This document shows positions 3,736 through 64,000 of a stretch of 64,000 bases of DNA, piece after piece. A program made the position numbers and the translations under genes. Source of the DNA: a bacterium (GTDB lineage Bacteria; Patescibacteriota; Minisyncoccia; Moranbacterales; UBA1568); contig JAKACP010000001.1 of NCBI GenBank assembly GCA_021821305.1, forward strand, positions 68,934-132,933. The letters are read 5' to 3'. Within the stretch, counting starts at the first letter, position 1. Every line of letters starts with the position of its first letter. Under the pieces are notes generated by a model. The model made no database searches. It was not told where the DNA came from and worked only from the letters and a program-made list of their open reading frames with translations.

Positions 3736-3751
3736 ATATAAGGCCTTCTTG

Positions 3752-3822
3752 TCGGGGTGCAGGGAGTCGAACCCTGACTAAATGGTCCCAAACCACTCGT
3801 ACTACCGCTATACTACACCCCG
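3752..3822 (-). tRNA. tRNA-Pro (anticodon TGG)
   Basis: The reverse complement reads CGGGGTGTAGTATAGCGGTAGTACGAGTGGTTTGGGACCATTTAGTCAGGGTTCGACTCCCTGCACCCCGA. It has a 7-bp acceptor stem, a TΨC arm GGTTCGACTCC and anticodon loop TTTGGGA. No CCA is encoded. Confidence 0.75.
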
Positions 3823-3863
3823 ATTCAACTCGGAATCCCCGCCTGCGGCAGGCAGGGAACCGA

Positions 3864-3911
3864 GACTAAATGGTCCCAAACCACTCGTACTACCACTATA
3901 CTATGCCCCGA
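3864..3911 (-). pseudogene. truncated duplicate of the tRNA-Pro(TGG) 5' portion (acceptor 5' strand, D arm, anticodon arm)
   Basis: A 31-nt exact repeat gactaaatggtcccaaaccactcgtactacc is flanked by tRNA-like sequence. The T arm and 3' acceptor strand are missing. It is not foldable as a tRNA. Confidence 0.5.
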
Positions 3912-4471: not shown

Positions 4472-6004
4472 CTACCGGGCGAACTCGATCGACCGGGTCT
4501 CGCGCATCACGACCACGCGGATCTCGCCGGGGTACTTGAGCTCCTCTTGGATCCGGCCCGCGATGTCCTTGGCGAGCTTCATCGCGCCGAGATCATCCGT
4601 CTTCTCGGGATTCACGAACACCCGCACCTCGCGGCCCGCCTGGATGGCATAGGACTTCTCCACTTCGGAAAACGAGTTGATGAGCGATTCGAGCTCCTCG
4701 AGCCGTCTGATGTATTTTTCCGCGGTCTCCTTCCGGGCACCCGGACGGGCCGCCGAAATCGCGTCGGCCGCGGTCACGATATAGGATTCGAGCGACGAAT
4801 GCGGATACTCGTCATGATGGCACTTCATGGCGTCGATCACTTCCTGCTGCACGCCGAATTTCTCGAGGATCCGGATGCCGATGTTCACGTGCGTCCCCTC
4901 GATCTCATGGTCCACCGCCTTGCCGATATCATGGAGCAATCCGGCCTTCTTCGCGACCGCGACGTTGCCGCCCAGTTCCGCGGCCAAAGCGCCGGCGATA
5001 TAGGAGACCTCGAGCGTATGGATGAGCACGTTCTGCTTGTAGCTGTAGCGGAACCGCAGCCGTCCGAGGATATAGAGCAGCTTGGGATGGAGCCCGGCCA
5101 CGCCGGCCTCGTATGCCGCCGCCTCGCCGGCTTCCTTGATCCTCTGATCGACTTCCTTGCGTCCTTCTTCCACGGCTTCCTCGATGCGGGCCGGATGGAT
5201 GCGTCCGTCGGCTATCAGCTTCTCGAGAGCTATCTTGGCCACTTCGCGTCGGACCGGGTCGAAACCGGAGATCACGACGGATTCCGGGGTATCGTCGACG
5301 ATGAGTTCGACACCGGTCTCCTTCTCGAGCGCGCGGATGTTCCGCCCTTCCTTGCCGATGATCTTCCCCTTGATGTCATCCGAAGGGATCGGCACCGTCG
5401 TCGTCGTGAACTCGGAGACATGCGAGCGGGAGTATTTCTGGATGATGGTCGCCATGATGTTGAGCGACCGCTCCTCGAGCGCCTCCGTCCCCTCCTTCTC
5501 GAGCTTGGTGATGCGCTGGACCAGGGCATCCTTGCTGTCCTCCTCCACGAGGCGGAACAGCTCCTCGCGGGCCTGCTCCGTCGAGAGGTTGGCTATGCGC
5601 TGGAGCTTTTCCTGCTCTTCTCCGCGAAGCTTTTCCACATCCTCCTGGATCGCCCGTATCTCGTCGGCTTTCTTGAGGAGCGTCTTCTTCTCCTGTTCGG
5701 TCTCGCTCAGGCGATGCTCGAGCTCGTCCTCACGCTTCTCGAGACGGCGTTCCTGGCGGCGGAACTCCTCCTCCCGGACCTGCGCCTCCTTTTTCGCTTC
5801 TTCCAAAAGCTCGACCGAACGGTTTTTCGCCTCGAGCACGATATCCGCGGATTTCTTTTCCGCGTCCTCGACGATCTTGGCCACCTGCCCCTCGGCGGTG
5901 GAAAGCTCACGTTTCGCCATCGTCTGGCGGGCCAGGTAGCCCAAAACCGCACCGACGCCGAGGGCGAGGGTGCCGATAAGCAGCAAAGTCACGCTGATAA
6001 CCAT
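4472..6004 (-). CDS. rny: ribonuclease Y
   Basis: It has an N-terminal TM helix, a coiled coil, a KH domain (GKIIGKEGRNIRALE) and an HD domain (LLHDIGKAVDHE). Confidence 0.9.
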   Translation of the reverse strand: MVISVTLLLIGTLALGVGAVLGYLARQTMAKRELSTAEGQVAKIVEDAEKKSADIVLEAKNRSVELLEEAKKEAQVREEEFRRQERRLEKREDELEHRLSETEQEKKTLLKKADEIRAIQEDVEKLRGEEQEKLQRIANLSTEQAREELFRLVEEDSKDALVQRITKLEKEGTEALEERSLNIMATIIQKYSRSHVSEFTTTTVPIPSDDIKGKIIGKEGRNIRALEKETGVELIVDDTPESVVISGFDPVRREVAKIALEKLIADGRIHPARIEEAVEEGRKEVDQRIKEAGEAAAYEAGVAGLHPKLLYILGRLRFRYSYKQNVLIHTLEVSYIAGALAAELGGNVAVAKKAGLLHDIGKAVDHEIEGTHVNIGIRILEKFGVQQEVIDAMKCHHDEYPHSSLESYIVTAADAISAARPGARKETAEKYIRRLEELESLINSFSEVEKSYAIQAGREVRVFVNPEKTDDLGAMKLAKDIAGRIQEELKYPGEIRVVVMRETRSIEFAR

Positions 6005-6249
6005 AACCGTGTATCCCTGTGCCCGAGATACCGCGGAGGGTCGTCGGAGAGGCTTACTTCGAAGCCTTCTTCATCCGATGAACATGAGAAAGAATACCGG
6101 AAACGGATCCGGCGGAAATATGAATGTCTCTGTGCGAATAGGAATGGGTTCCCTTCATAATTTTCAATCTTCTCGTCCCCGCTATCTCAAGAAAAGGGGT
6201 GAAACAATATTTACGAATGTGGAGCCATCATAGCCCAACGGGACCGCTT

Positions 6250-6279
6250 TGTCAAAGAGATTGGCGAGGTGCTATACTG
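6250..6279 (+). promoter_or_regulatory. sigma-70-like promoter (TTGTCA-18-TATACT)
   Basis: The sequence ttgtcaaagagattggcgaggtgctatact lies immediately upstream of repeat copy A and gpmI. Confidence 0.35.
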
Positions 6280-6283
6280 ACTA

Positions 6284-6468
6284 AGTAACTGTTCAACATC
6301 TCACCGCCCTGAATACAAGAAAAAGCATGCTTGTCTCATAAAATGTCCGGATTTCGGCTGCAAACCCCTCAAAGCTCGTCGGATTATCACGATAGCCCTC
6401 CTCACTTCTCAGGGTTTTCGCTCGAAATCCGAACATTTTCTTGAGACATGAGATATTGAACAGTTACT
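6284..6468 (-). repeat. copy A of a ~186-nt TIR-flanked intergenic element (candidate structured ncRNA or MITE)
   Basis: The 20-nt termini agtaactgttcaacatctca and tgagatattgaacagttact are inverted repeats (19/20). The interior aligns with the copies at 51599-51790 and 63398-63583. Confidence 0.5.
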
Positions 6469-6495
6469 AAAGAAATCACCATAAACAGAAACATC

Positions 6496-8070
6496 GTGTA
6501 CCGACCGTTCGTGCTGGTCGTCTTGGACGGATGGGGCTTGAGCTCCTTCACCCAAGGGAATCCTTTGCGCCAGGCGAAGCTCCCGACCATCGAAAAACTC
6601 AACCGATTCTACCCCCTGGCGACGCTTCAGGCCTCCGGAATTTCCGTAGGTCTTCCTTGGAATACCGCCGGAAACAGCGAGGTCGGCCACATGACCATGG
6701 GCGCGGGACGCGTCATCTACCAGAACCTCCCGCGCATCGCGCTTTCCATACAGGACGGGAGTTTCTATAAGAATCCCACGCTGCTCGCCGCCATCGACAA
6801 CGTGAAACGGACCGGGGGGAAACTCCATCTGATGGGGCTCGTCGGTGCCGGCGCGGTGCACTCGAGCAAGGATCACCTCTCGGCATTGCTGCGCATGACC
6901 AAGAACGAGGGGCTCGAGCAGGTGTTCATCCACGCCTTCACCGACGGTCGCGACTCCCCTCCGATGGCGGGAATACAGCATATCCGCGACCTCGAACGCG
7001 AGATGTCGATGATCGGCATCGGCCGGGTCGCCTCGGTCATCGGTCGCAACTGGGCCATGGACCGCAACAACAACTGGGACCGCATCGAGAAGGCCTATCG
7101 GATGCTCACCGAAGGGAAAGGCGAGCCGATGACCGATGTTCCGCTCTATCTCGAGCAATCCTACCTCAAGAACGTCACGGACGAATACGTCGAGGCCGGC
7201 GTCACCGTGGATGAGAACGGGCAACCGATCGCGCGCATCGAGGAGAAGGACTCGGTGATATATTTCAATTTCCGCGAAGACCGGGCCCGTGAGCTCACCA
7301 AGGCGTTCACGCTTCCCGGCTTCGACAAGTTCGATCGGCCGAAATTTCTCGACATCCATTTCGTCACCCTGACCGAATACGAGCGGGATCTCCCCGTGAC
7401 CGGCATCGCGTTCCCTCCGGAAAAGGTCGAGAACAGTCTCGGCGAGACGCTCTCCAACGCCGGAAAAAAGCAGCTGCGCATCGCCGAGACCGAAAAATAT
7501 GCCCACGTCACCTACTTCTTCAACGGAGGCAAGGAGCGGGCTTTCGCCGGCGAAGATCGGCTCCTCGTGCCGTCTCCGACCGTTTCCAAATTCGACGAGG
7601 TTCCGGAGATGAGCTCCGGAGAGTTGACCGACACGGTCATAAAGGCCATCGGTGAGGGGAAATATGATTTCATCCTCGTCAATTACGCGAACCCGGACAT
7701 GGTCGCCCATACCGGAAACGAGGAAGCGACGGTCGAAGCCGTCGAGGCGACCGACCGGTGCCTGGCGCTCCTCATCCCCGCGGTACTGCAGGCCGGAGGC
7801 GCGATGATGGTCACTTCGGATCACGGAAACGCCGAGGAACTCAAGAAGGCTTCCACCGGAGAGACCGACACCGAGCACTCGACCAACCCCATACCGCTCT
7901 GGTACCTCACCCCGGACAACCATCGGGAAAAGGACGCCGGCACGATGATGCGCGAACAAAACGAGGTACGCGGACTCCTTTCGGACGTCGCTCCGACCAT
8001 ACTCGATATACTGCAGATTCCCCAGCCGGCCGAGATGAACGGCTCGAGTATCGCGTCCTTGCTCGAGTGA
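6496..8070 (+). CDS. gpmI: 2,3-bisphosphoglycerate-independent phosphoglycerate mutase
   Basis: The 524-aa product carries iPGM motifs (LVVLDGWG, SEVGHMTMGAGR, TSDHGNAEE). Confidence 0.9.
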   Translation: MYRPFVLVVLDGWGLSSFTQGNPLRQAKLPTIEKLNRFYPLATLQASGISVGLPWNTAGNSEVGHMTMGAGRVIYQNLPRIALSIQDGSFYKNPTLLAAIDNVKRTGGKLHLMGLVGAGAVHSSKDHLSALLRMTKNEGLEQVFIHAFTDGRDSPPMAGIQHIRDLEREMSMIGIGRVASVIGRNWAMDRNNNWDRIEKAYRMLTEGKGEPMTDVPLYLEQSYLKNVTDEYVEAGVTVDENGQPIARIEEKDSVIYFNFREDRARELTKAFTLPGFDKFDRPKFLDIHFVTLTEYERDLPVTGIAFPPEKVENSLGETLSNAGKKQLRIAETEKYAHVTYFFNGGKERAFAGEDRLLVPSPTVSKFDEVPEMSSGELTDTVIKAIGEGKYDFILVNYANPDMVAHTGNEEATVEAVEATDRCLALLIPAVLQAGGAMMVTSDHGNAEELKKASTGETDTEHSTNPIPLWYLTPDNHREKDAGTMMREQNEVRGLLSDVAPTILDILQIPQPAEMNGSSIASLLE

Positions 8071-50562: not shown

Positions 50563-51528
50563 TCAAAACTTCTTCACGAAGAGCGTGAGGGCGAGTTCGG
50601 GGTCGATCCGGCCGACCTTGAGATCTGAGTCGAGCGAGGCGAGAAGCGAGAATCCGTCGCGAAGACGCGCGAGCGAAAACCCGGACATCCGCGAGAGCAG
50701 TTTCCCGACGACGAAGGGGTGCATACCCGTCGCCTTGGCGATATCCGCCGACCGCATGACACCGCGATCGCACTCACCGCGGACCTTGAGGAGTTCGCGG
50801 AGCTGCCAGGCGAGGAGCCCGAACAGTTTCGGGACTCCGCCGGAATCCGCGCGCGATTCCTCGAGGAGCATCGTAGCCGCCTTGCCCCGGTCGCCCGACA
50901 CAAGCGCGTCGAGCGCCGCGAACACCTTCTCCCTCGGATTCCCGGAGACGAAGCGTTCCACATCCTCAATCGAGACCTCTCCGGATTCCCGATACGAGGC
51001 GAGTGTCCTCGCGTAACCGGAAAGCGTTCCGGAGTCGCCCGGAAAAAGCGCTACGAGCCGATCGGCCGCCGCACGGGAAAACGATATATCCGCCGAGACG
51101 GCACGAGCCTCCTGAGTGAGGAACGTCCGCGCTTCCTCGGCGGACAGGATCGGAAATTCCTCGGTGATATCGGCGTGTTTTTTCAGGAACGTCGCGAGCG
51201 GATCCTTGGCTTTCACCGCACTGTCGGAGACGAACAGGAATCGCGAGGAAGCGGCCGCACCCTTGAGCGCGTCGCATATCCGCTCCTTCTCGTCATCCGC
51301 CACGGAAAACGCGCTCCCGACATCGACGAAGCGCGGCGCGCCGAACAGATCGACCGCACCGGCATCGGCGAGGCGTTTCGCGACACGGAGCGGATCCTCG
51401 TCGGCATCGACCGAGACGGTCTCGCCTTCCGGGCATTCCTCGCGGAAGGCCCGTTTCAGCTCCGAACGGCGCCGCATGAGGCGGAATCGGTCCTTTCCTG
51501 ACAGGAAAATCATCATAGGATTCGTCAT
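50563..51528 (-). CDS. holA: DNA polymerase III delta subunit
   Basis: It has the ~320-aa HolA-like architecture. The start is at the internal MTNPMM. Confidence 0.65.
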   Translation of the reverse strand: MTNPMMIFLSGKDRFRLMRRRSELKRAFREECPEGETVSVDADEDPLRVAKRLADAGAVDLFGAPRFVDVGSAFSVADDEKERICDALKGAAASSRFLFVSDSAVKAKDPLATFLKKHADITEEFPILSAEEARTFLTQEARAVSADISFSRAAADRLVALFPGDSGTLSGYARTLASYRESGEVSIEDVERFVSGNPREKVFAALDALVSGDRGKAATMLLEESRADSGGVPKLFGLLAWQLRELLKVRGECDRGVMRSADIAKATGMHPFVVGKLLSRMSGFSLARLRDGFSLLASLDSDLKVGRIDPELALTLFVKKF

Positions 51529-51598
51529 TACTCCCCCAGTATACCAAAAGGACAGCATTCCTGCTGTCCTTCCGCCGTCACCCCGCTCCGAGAGGCGC

Positions 51599-51790
51599 TA
51601 GTAACTATCTCAAATCTCATGTCGAACTGAAATGCTGAAATTTCGAGCGAAAAAGCCGAAAAGCGCGGAGGGCTATCGGGATAACCCGACAAACTTTTCG
51701 GGTTTTGCAGCCGAAATTTCAGTGTTTCAGACGACAAGTGTGCGGGATTTTTGCTTGAAATACACGCGGTGAGATTTGAGATAGTTACTT
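51599..51790 (+). repeat. copy B of the ~186-nt TIR-flanked intergenic element
   Basis: It has perfect 20-nt terminal inverted repeats (agtaactatctcaaatctca and tgagatttgagatagttact). Its interior aligns with copies A and C. Confidence 0.5.
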
Positions 51791-52898
51791 AGGCCTGCTC
51801 CCACTTGTACCCCGTTCCCGGCTCGACGACATTGACCCATATCTGTCCCGGAACGAACTTCACTTCATTCCCGTTCTGATCGAGGAACAGGAGCTTGCTC
51901 GCTATGTTCGTCCGATCCTTCTTCCAGGTGCCGCGGGTCTGCTTGCCGTTCATGTAGTAGAACGCATCCCCGGAGTCCACCTGGTCGCCCCACGGATCGC
52001 CGAACTTGAGGTTGTTGTACTGGCCCTCTATCTGCTCGGACTCGACGAAGATCGTCACGACATTCTTCGGGGCGATGCGGACACCGTTATTGCGATCGGT
52101 ATCCTCGACGTTGCCCCACAGCCGCTTCCACGCGTTGGAATCCTTGTCATAGAAATATTCGACTTCTCCCGAACCCGGGTACCCGATACGCAGGTGCGCG
52201 CTCGACGGACGGTCCGCGAGCGGAGCCTCGTCCTGGTGCGGATACCCGGCGAACCGGTTCTCGAGACCATACCCGAGCGCCTCGGATCGCGCGAAGGCCG
52301 CCTCGACATTGACGCGGCTCGTGTCCTCCACTTTCATGCCGTTCGTCCGTTCGGCTCGGTAGCAGACATCGGATCCGGCCGAATTTCCGGCCGCTCCGGT
52401 GCAATCGATGTTGTCGAGTATCCCCTCCTTGATCTTGTCGAGGGCGAAATGCGACCCGCCCCAGTGGACATAGATCGCGTCGAGGCCCTTGGCAAGATGG
52501 AGGAAGTCATGCCGCGAGGAGCGGACCGCGCCGGCCTCTTTCGGGAGCGTGCACTGGTATACCGCCATGAGCCGGTTGATGGTCGCGGTGATGACCGGCA
52601 TCTCGAACACCATGTCCGCATCGGAGAATCCGGCGGCCGGGCGCGCGGAGAGGTCCGCCGGCTGCATCACGGCCACCGGACGGCGATTCCAGTTCTCGCA
52701 CGACACCCCGGAGAGCGCGCTCACCGGACCGGTGTTCACCGCCGCCTGCGGTCCGGACGAACCTGAAGACGGGTTTTCCATCTGTATCCGATTCACGTTG
52801 GCCTTGCGCATCGCGTCGCGGCCGTAGGTGAAATACACCGCGAGCCCGGCGATGGACATCGCGACGATGGCGATGATCAGTTTCTGTTTCACTGGCAT
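51789..52898 (-). CDS. DUF3048-like (YerB-like) membrane-anchored or secreted protein
   Basis: The 369-aa product has an N-terminal TM/signal anchor. The family assignment is recalled from memory, with moderate certainty. Confidence 0.55.
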   Translation of the reverse strand: MPVKQKLIIAIVAMSIAGLAVYFTYGRDAMRKANVNRIQMENPSSGSSGPQAAVNTGPVSALSGVSCENWNRRPVAVMQPADLSARPAAGFSDADMVFEMPVITATINRLMAVYQCTLPKEAGAVRSSRHDFLHLAKGLDAIYVHWGGSHFALDKIKEGILDNIDCTGAAGNSAGSDVCYRAERTNGMKVEDTSRVNVEAAFARSEALGYGLENRFAGYPHQDEAPLADRPSSAHLRIGYPGSGEVEYFYDKDSNAWKRLWGNVEDTDRNNGVRIAPKNVVTIFVESEQIEGQYNNLKFGDPWGDQVDSGDAFYYMNGKQTRGTWKKDRTNIASKLLFLDQNGNEVKFVPGQIWVNVVEPGTGYKWEQA

Positions 52899-63311: not shown

Positions 63312-63340
63312 TTGGTATTTCTGTCAAGAAGTGGTAGAAT
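63312..63340 (+). promoter_or_regulatory. candidate sigma-70 promoter (TTGGTA-17-TAGAAT) upstream of repeat copy C and ruvB
   Basis: ttggtatttctgtcaagaagtggtagaat. Confidence 0.3.
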
Positions 63341-63397
63341 GACGAGGTACCGAAGCGGCCGAAAGCCCGCACGAAATCACCGGAAATGGCTTGAATA

Positions 63398-63583
63398 AGA
63401 GCCTGTTCAATATCTCATGTCGGATCAAAGTTTCAGAATTTCAAGCGAAAATCATGCATCGTGAGAAGGCCTATCGTGATACGCCGACGAGCGATAAATG
63501 ATTTGCAGCCGAAATTCTGAAAGTTTGGCCGACAAGCGAAGATTTTCTCTTTATTCAGGGCGGTGAGATATTGAACAAGCTCT
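63398..63583 (+). repeat. copy C of the ~186-nt TIR-flanked intergenic element
   Basis: The termini agagcctgttcaatatctca and tgagatattgaacaagctct are inverted repeats (19/20). The interior motifs tttc(a/g)agcgaaaa, ggcctatcgtgata, ccgacgagc and tttgcagccgaaat are shared with copies A and B. Confidence 0.5.
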
Positions 63584-63593
63584 AAAAGAATAT

Positions 63594-64000
63594 ATGATGA
63601 CCTCTCCGGAAAATGACGCCACCGAGGATATCGTGCTCGACACGACGCTCCGCCCGCAATCCTTCTCGGAATACGTGGGGCAGGAAAAGATCAAGCGGAA
63701 CCTCGGCATATTCATCGAGGCGGCGAAACGGCGCCAGGAAAGCGTCGACCACGTGCTCCTCTACGGTCCCGCGGGACTCGGCAAGACGACGCTCGCGCAC
63801 ATCATCGCCAAGGAGATGAACGTCAATATCCGGATCACGTCCGGCCCCGCCATCGAACGCGTCGGCGACCTCGGATCGATACTCACGAACCTCGAGCCGG
63901 GCGACGTGCTGTTCATCGACGAGATCCATCGGCTCAACAAGGTGATCGAGGAGGTGCTGTATCCGGCGATGGAGGACTACAAGCTCGATATCATCATCGG
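63594..64000 (+). CDS. ruvB: Holliday junction branch-migration helicase RuvB (3' end outside the window)
   Basis: It has the AAA+ Walker [15 protein letters not shown] and Walker [11 protein letters not shown]. The ORF is open to the end of the window. Confidence 0.85.

Follow-up and report, generated by a model that had tools for sequence, protein, structure and literature searches.

A family of structured miniature elements with IS5-type ends in Patescibacteria and other bacteria

Three intergenic loci in a 64,000-nucleotide (nt) stretch of contig JAKACP010000001.1, from a member of the Moranbacterales in the Patescibacteriota (assembly GCA_021821305.1), carry copies of a sequence of about 186 nt bounded by inverted repeats. 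The whole of this stretch is referred to here as the window. [quoted passage not shown] The copies are shown here to be MITEs that duplicate a 3-bp TNA target and are polymorphic between close relatives; the MITE part of that proposal stands and the free-standing 6S-like RNA gene does not. The copies are very probably IS5-type MITEs that are mobilised in trans and whose interior fold is under selection in a single-stranded form. The genomes of Patescibacteria (the candidate phyla radiation, CPR) are tiny and are thought to be poor in mobile elements and regulatory RNAs; in the window, the MITE family is abundant, at about three copies per 64 kb.

Alignment of the three loci over their whole length gave a mean column identity of 80%, and a covariance model built from the three copies recovered all of them at 202-206 bits (E about 1e-44), bearing out the claim that they form one alignable intergenic family. 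Copy A (183 nt) occupies 6285-6467 on the minus strand (205.6 bits), as delimited also by alignment to an empty site in locus L118 and by a scan for terminal inverted repeats (TIRs) and target-site duplications (TSDs); copy B (188 nt) occupies 51601-51788 on the plus strand (203.6 bits), as placed also from the sequence and from the identities of the adjacent genes; and copy C (184 nt) occupies 63399-63582 on the plus strand (202.2 bits; TIR/TSD scan). The limits first given for the copies were nearly right, each end having taken in one base of the TSD. The 20-nt termini are complementary at 19/20, 20/20 and 19/20 positions in copies A, B and C, respectively, exactly as first read, and wherever the terminal sequence of one copy departs from that of another, the partner arm has changed to match. 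The interior motifs described as shared are indeed found in all three. No open reading frame (ORF) of 80 or more amino acids lies inside these elements (183-188 nt), and no fourth copy was found in the 64-kb window by interior-motif scans, the covariance model or the TIR/TSD scan.

Further copies, a search for which had been proposed with the first description, are numerous in other genomes. A scan of one genome per species for the pair of interior motifs that are best conserved (TTTCRAGCGAAA-N40-62-TTGCAGCCGAAA) yielded at least 117 loci, and the covariance model recognised at least 128 non-overlapping copies in the window and these loci together. Single metagenome-assembled genomes (MAGs), such as Kerfeldbacteria MHKD01 and Moraniibacteriota ELA282, contribute several loci each. 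The copies fall into two size classes, one of about 186-198 nt to which those of the window belong (the 190-nt class) and one of about 162-172 nt that forms a nearly symmetric palindrome (the 166-nt class). Among the matches listed, the hosts are mainly Patescibacteria, including Moraniibacteriota, Kerfeldbacteria, Saccharibacteria, Peregrinibacteria, Doudnabacteria, Vogelbacteria, Uhrbacteria and others. The same core is embedded in wholly different stems and TIRs in Bacteroidota (among them the isolate Flavobacterium collinsii CECT 7796), Hyphomicrobiales, Acidobacteriaceae, Cytophagales, Elusimicrobiales and Endomicrobiales, the copies of Bacteroidota being AT-rich and those of Hyphomicrobiales having GC-rich stems. 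A BLAST search of plasmids with the Hyphomicrobiales and Flavobacterium copies returned nothing relevant, and a scan of viral contigs with the core pattern gave 0 matches. The family was not found described in the literature on MITEs in Patescibacteria/CPR or on IS1031/IS5 MITEs, and it appears to be previously undescribed itself, within the known class of bacterial MITEs.

Insertion sites and the IS5-family partner

The insertion of copy A can be read from a close relative of the window. In L118, whose gpmI is 95% identical, the intergenic region between the RNase Y gene (rny) and gpmI reads TATACTGAC TAA AGAAAT, and the window at the same place reads TATACTGAC TAA, the 183-nt element, and then TAA AGAAAT. 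The rny-gpmI spacer measures 304 nt in L118 and 491 nt in the window, and the site is likewise empty in L120 (gpmI 83% identical). The search for empty sites suggested by the first-pass annotation thus revealed a 3-bp TAA duplication, at 6282-6284 to the left of copy A and at 6468-6470 to its right. Copy C is flanked by TAA at 63396-63398 and 63583-63585, as seen in the sequence and in the TIR/TSD scan. To the right of copy B stands TTA (51789-51791), which, read on the minus strand as TAA, doubles as the stop of the DUF3048 gene, and to its left CTA (51598-51600), a degenerate duplicate with one mismatch to the right-hand TTA.

The same pattern recurs throughout the family. Copies have TIRs of 18-23 nt that start with G (GAGCC... 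or GTAAC...) and have on either side a 3-bp TNA target duplication, in most cases TAA or TTA. In an alignment of 37 copies, both 3-bp flanks are identical in 20, and where both flanks are TWA the repeat is direct (TTA/TTA or TAA/TAA) in 19 cases and inverted in 1; TCA/TCA and TGA/TGA pairs are seen as well. Among elements from a set of metagenome contigs, 39 have direct flanks and 9 inverted ones. A nested insertion is present in L114, where one copy lies within another and is flanked by TTA/TTA, and deleting the inner copy together with one TTA regenerates the normal end of the outer copy. Between co-directional genes, the copies are in sense orientation in 25 cases and in antisense in 27. 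The duplicated triplet is the stop codon of a flanking ORF in about 20/120 copies, including copy B, so that in genomes this compact the elements seem to land at stop codons frequently.

A candidate source of the transposase was found by searching metagenome contigs for the TIR pattern TWAGAGCCTGTTCANNATC. In addition to pairs at MITE spacing, 15 loci had TIR pairs 838-908 bp apart. Two of these, L128 and L199, read TAA|GAGCCTGTTCA(CG/AG)ATCT ... AGAT..TGAACAGGCTC|TAA and encode a pair of overlapping ORFs that meet at an A8 slippery run, orfA matching DUF4096 (PF13340, E 3e-22) and orfB matching DDE_Tnp_1 (PF01609, E 5e-31) as well as DDE_Tnp_1_2. The NCBIfam model NF033580 (transpos_IS5_3) scored 151.8 bits against a cut-off of 110, which identifies the product as an IS5-family transposase. 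In their size of 838-908 bp, GAG... ends, TAA/TTA duplications and orfA/orfB frameshifting at A8, these partners match IS5-family insertion sequences, unlike the elements of the window, which encode nothing. Relatives of the transposase are extremely common, chiefly on contigs of about 1 kb. The TIRs and TAA duplication of the MITEs are those that bound these insertion sequences, and the two have the TIR (18-23 nt) alone in common, the MITE interior of 120-150 nt being unrelated. The MITE reading of the first-pass annotation is therefore upheld by the TSDs, the empty site in a close relative, the nested insertion and an IS5-family partner with the same TIRs, and movement of the MITEs may be accounted for by this IS5-type partner.

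Elements of 43-458 nt with the same TIRs and different interiors also exist. At L147:1824-1874 (51 nt) and L145:782-845 (64 nt), almost nothing is left but two IS5-type TIRs, with flanks of TAA/TAA and TAA/TTA, respectively. That such TIR-only elements carry duplications shows that the TIRs are the mobile module common to all. Autonomous copies were also sought in the genome loci, where no orphan TIRs and no core motifs split 1-2 kb apart were found. Clustering of 1474 ORFs from all loci disclosed no recurrent partner gene (transposase, reverse transcriptase or similar), the copies always lying among ordinary housekeeping genes, and the neighbour families that do recur are all housekeeping ones (EF-G, ABC/FtsX, UvrA, Mur ligase, SecDF).

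These features place the family close to known elements. A 3-bp TNA/TWA duplication and TIRs starting with G or A are reported hallmarks of the PIF/Harbinger-ISL2EU-IS5 (PHIS) superfamily, which is reportedly related to bacterial IS5 and typically has 3-bp TSDs (PMC4482050). IS5-derived bacterial MITEs and eukaryotic Tourist MITEs (PIF/Harbinger, PHIS) are likewise small and non-coding, with G-starting TIRs taken from a DDE element, a 3-bp TNA/TWA duplication, high copy number and a preference for intergenic sites. The present family differs from them in that its interior is no deletion derivative of the insertion sequence and in that interior structure and invariant loops are conserved across phyla. 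At the sequence level, the element has every feature by which a MITE is recognised, and the partner has those of the IS5 family.

Covariation and strand specificity of the interior

For 37 copies of the window's class, RNAalifold predicted 63 pairs. The fold is rod-like overall, with a three-way junction in the 190-nt class: an outer helix is formed by the TIRs and ATCTCAT/GTGAGAT, a long inner hairpin is broken by conserved loops, and a third arm is short, variable and AU-rich and is closed by GC/GC. In the window, the inner hairpin spans 6333-6447 of copy A on the minus strand (from RNAalifold columns 25-139, motif positions and covariation), with the invariant loop motifs ATTTCGAGCGAAAA at 6416-6429 and TTTGCAGCCGAAAT at 6351-6364. 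It spans 51621-51735 of copy B (plus strand; loop motifs at 51640-51653 and 51704-51717) and 63419-63533 of copy C (plus strand; loop motifs at 63438-63451 and 63502-63515).

Covariation had first been noticed at the termini, and it extends well beyond them: double compensatory changes occur at 24/70 pairs when the three window copies are compared and at 52/63 pairs with 37 copies. Pairing was kept in 94.5% of paired cells, compared with 76.9% in column shuffles (0/500 shuffles matched the observed value), and dropped to 28-47% when partners were slid by 1-3 columns; as the copies are phylogenetically related, such cell counts overstate the number of independent events and the shuffle controls overstate significance. 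Invariant positions are mostly unpaired or mismatched, namely GAGCGAAA of the 5' arm facing UUGCAGCCGAAA of the 3' arm, with AGC opposite AGC, together with a junction reading CAAGC and the loops near the apical hairpin, which are rich in GA. The 166-nt class contains two nested copies of the loop module. The core motif is kept in both the GC-rich copies of Hyphomicrobiales and the AT-rich copies of Bacteroidota despite completely different stems.

The pairing is specific to one strand. G·U occupied 93 cells and A·C 25, with a G·U excess in 24 columns and an A·C excess in 8, and columns alternating between C-G and U-A passed through U·G (10, 8, 10 and 6 cells) with C·A hardly ever seen (0, 2, 1 and 0 cells). 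The motif-bearing strand was stabler than its reverse complement in 35/37 copies of the 190-nt class (-78 vs -67 kcal/mol) and in 73/73 copies of the 166-nt class (-73 vs -57 kcal/mol), in which the strand orientation was set from the loop motif alone and G·U pairs numbered 320 against 92. Because G·U pairs exceed A·C about 4:1, one strand folds better (108/110 copies). The asymmetry is alike in sense and antisense copies (-13.5 vs -14.8 kcal/mol, p = 0.70), which indicates that it belongs to the propagating lineage and did not arise by selection after insertion; host-level selection on transcribed copies is thereby rejected as its cause. Relative to the host transcription unit, copy A lies in the worse-folding and copy C in the better-folding orientation. 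The first-pass annotation took the matched changes in the termini as a sign that these pair in a single strand. Matching TIRs would be needed by the transposase anyway, and the changes at the ends do not by themselves carry that claim, but strand-specific, G·U-mediated covariation along the whole element does speak for it. It is thus likely that a folded single-stranded form, either RNA or single-stranded DNA (ssDNA), is under selection.

Weighing of the explanations

The explanation that we favour with considerable confidence is an IS5-type MITE, mobilised in trans, whose interior fold is selected in single-stranded form. An IS5-family transposase supplied in trans would bind the TIRs and would cut the MITE and paste it into intergenic TNA sites, often at TAA stop codons or in the gap between promoter and start codon. 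Selection on the fold would act on the element as it propagates, through a single-stranded form that is most probably the RNA of read-through transcripts, with ssDNA as the alternative; the RNA form is the more likely because copies lie within transcription units. The 5' leaders of gpmI and ruvB would then gain a long stable hairpin from copies A and C, respectively, as would the intercistronic RNA of the DUF3048 gene and holA from copy B.

Several observations weigh against this explanation. By tblastn, no IS5_3-type transposase was found in the window or in L001-L120 (8-kb genome pieces each), and no locus carries both a MITE and an insertion sequence; with no transposase at the MITE-bearing loci, mobilisation is inferred from the common TIRs alone. 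The subgroup of the partner is tentative, its size, GAG ends, 3-bp duplication and frameshifted ORFs pointing to the IS427 or IS1031 type of the ISfinder tables. No consistent internal promoter or terminator was found in the element, and with random orientation many copies would be transcribed on the worse-folding strand. G·T is the best-tolerated mismatch in DNA, so RNA and ssDNA forms cannot be told apart by the G·U excess. The relatedness of the copies, already mentioned with the shuffle controls, counts on the same side.

A further step, which we put forward tentatively and which may well prove wrong, is that the MITE carries as its cargo a structured RNA that has a function, measures about 120-150 nt and contains invariant internal loops rich in GA. 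If so, a widespread IS5-type transposase would spread an RNA cargo through Patescibacteria and at least four other phyla, and the cargo RNA, or the matching DNA strand, would act for the element or for the host: it might bind a conserved protein, control the transposase, or determine how stable the mRNAs into which it has inserted are and how they are processed. It would then be a bacterial analogue of the mobile repeats derived from RNA genes and a new RNA class where very few regulatory RNAs are known.

The rival that survives best, although we consider it rather unlikely, keeps the IS5-type MITE and lets the fold act as ssDNA, on the lagging-strand template or during transposition, where it could draw the two TIRs together or offer its conserved loops to a binding protein. 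It is consistent with a strand asymmetry that is borne by the element and independent of host transcription, with the lack of an internal promoter, and with the tolerance of G·T in DNA. An inner hairpin that is flipped in L021 likewise points to DNA-level recombination between the arms. On the other side, no IS5-family DDE transposase is known to use strand-specific ssDNA intermediates, the TIR-only elements carry duplications, from which the hairpin appears dispensable for recognition, and orientation is random with respect to genes and so probably to replication too.

That the interior is a functionless palindrome, its covariation being produced by subfamily founder effects and homogenisation of the arms within an IS5-type MITE, is unlikely. 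MITEs are often long imperfect palindromes, the copies share descent with the effect on shuffle controls stated above, and the arms do recombine, as the inversion in L021 indicates. Homogenisation of the arms would, however, erase conserved asymmetric loops, and the arm-specific invariant mismatches (AGC opposite AGC) have been kept across phyla while the stems turned over. Moreover, change between C-G and U-A runs by way of U·G, with C·A almost absent, and length is tightly held at about 166 or about 190 nt.

Very unlikely is the reading of the repeats as free-standing structured ncRNA genes, 6S-like or other, in which the termini would be a closing stem and the repeats paralogous genes. Very strong covariation along the full length, the excess of G·U over A·C with one strand folding better, and purine-rich internal loops that are invariant across phyla would all suit an RNA gene, as would a core hairpin without TIRs that stands 4 nt upstream of a tRNA gene in L057. 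The precise empty site with its 3-bp duplication nevertheless refutes an RNA gene as the primary identity, and the nested insertion, an IS5-family insertion sequence having the same TIR and TSD, the occurrence in both orientations, and the insertions at stop codons and within 5' leaders all stand against it. The Infernal/Rfam check proposed in the first-pass annotation gave no support to its 6S-like RNA gene: the window copies matched no family of Rfam 15, 6S included, either at the gathering threshold or at E<=10, and at the gathering threshold the window as well as 17 loci from six phyla returned tRNAs only. The family resembles 6S RNA in being about 185 nt long and in having an extended closing helix; the family differs from it in being multi-copy, flanked by TSDs, absent at orthologous sites and devoid of a conserved promoter or terminator of its own. 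Hardly credible is a hairpin moved by HUH/Y1 enzymes (REP/REPIN or IS200/IS605-derived) or an integron attC-like site, which the strand asymmetry and a general likeness as a strand-specific imperfect hairpin with conserved unpaired bases would favour, but such systems make no TSD where the element duplicates TNA, the termini are the same as in an IS5-family insertion sequence with a DDE transposase and are unlike the R''/R' boxes of attC, and no RAYT/TnpA or integrase gene recurs beside the copies. The element accordingly does not have the defining features of 6S RNA, of any Rfam family, of REP/REPIN, of IS200/IS605-derived elements or of attC sites.

The nearest functional analogues of the IS5-type MITE described here are the enterobacterial repetitive intergenic consensus (ERIC) and the Correia elements of Neisseria, which are structured, co-transcribed, MITE-like repeats. 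Both are imperfect palindromes of 100-190 nt that lie between genes in both orientations and are co-transcribed with their neighbours, and their fold differs with orientation as G·U becomes A·C. The present family differs from them in spanning several phyla with its centre in Patescibacteria and in having an IS5_3-type partner transposase, and the Correia duplication is TA, compared with TNA here. The interior has evolved in the way expected of a functional RNA (G·U-mediated compensation, invariant loops and strand specificity), which is uncommon inside a DDE-type DNA transposon. The interior can be put to the test because a cultured host, F. collinsii CECT 7796, has a copy (L009:5637-5802).

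Neighbouring genes and minor observations

Copy A lies after the -10 box of the gpmI promoter and before the gpmI start codon, between rny (4472-6004, minus strand) and gpmI (6496-8070). The promoter-like site of gpmI (TTGTCA-18-TATACT, 6249-6278, plus strand) lies outside the element. Copy B has the DUF3048 gene (51789-52898) and holA (50563-51558) as neighbours, both on the minus strand. Copy C stands between a host promoter-like site (TTGGTA-17-TAGAAT, 63312-63340, plus strand), also outside the element, and the start codon of ruvB (63597). The two promoter-like sequences reported earlier next to copies A and C are genuine consensus matches, and gpmI and ruvB were correctly named as the genes downstream. 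These promoters are a property of the host genes; that of gpmI also stands at the empty site. Among named sequences, the best relatives of gpmI come from Candidatus Moranbacteria / Moraniibacteriota, in keeping with a Patescibacteria genome. Polymorphic insertions at stop codons and in the promoter-to-start gaps of gpmI, ruvB and holA are likely to cause differences in expression between strains. The family is also a likely cause of assembly breaks in MAGs, and masking or annotating it would prevent its repeated rediscovery as a novel ncRNA.

At the right TIR of copy C, an outward TTGAAC and the flanking TATGAT make up the only promoter-like site that combines TIR and flank (63571-63598, 16-nt spacer). 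It runs into the start codon of ruvB and has probably arisen by chance.

Among the matches listed, the copies closest to those of the window are in L044, L063, L078, L086 and other 'binchicken' TPA MAGs that are titled Bdellovibrionales or Gammaproteobacteria, which reflects either a very recent transfer across phyla or unreliable taxonomic labels. In an Endomicrobiales MAG (L057:81-182), the core hairpin occurs without IS5-type TIRs and on the same strand as a tRNA gene, 4 nt upstream of it, a hint that the cargo can exist outside the MITE. In L021:3641-3829, the inner hairpin (about 98 nt) lies the other way round from the outer part, unlike that in the near-identical siblings of the same MAG (L058, L040 and L102), indicating recombination between the arms of the palindrome.

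Some copies (L035:3087-3405 and L061:6027-6320, also L002:350-547 and L029:4222-4407) are longer because they contain additional GC-rich hairpins of 32-37 nt (CCCGCCCG...CGGGCGGG). The extra hairpin has the same insertion point, within the invariant TTTGC^AGCCGAAAT motif, in two lineages that are unrelated, and would be an optional stem or else a tiny mobile hairpin in its own right. A resemblance to hammerhead ribozymes in L035 (CUGACGAG...CCGAAA) was rejected, as the window copies have C for U, stem II is impossible and no Rfam hammerhead model matched. The k-turn, loop E and group II intron domain 5 (AGC triad), as well as domain IV of the signal recognition particle (SRP) RNA (GCAGCC) and retron msr/msd, were likewise set aside, as none agrees with the observed pairing or has model support, and the conserved loops matched no known motif.

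Duplicated tRNA ends often mark the att site of an integrated element. In the window, an intact tRNA-Pro(tgg) gene (3751-3822, minus strand), which ARAGORN called, has a partial duplicate, which it did not call, 35 nt away, at 3857-3911, whose 55 nt are 91% identical to the 3' part of the gene (compare 3769-3823).

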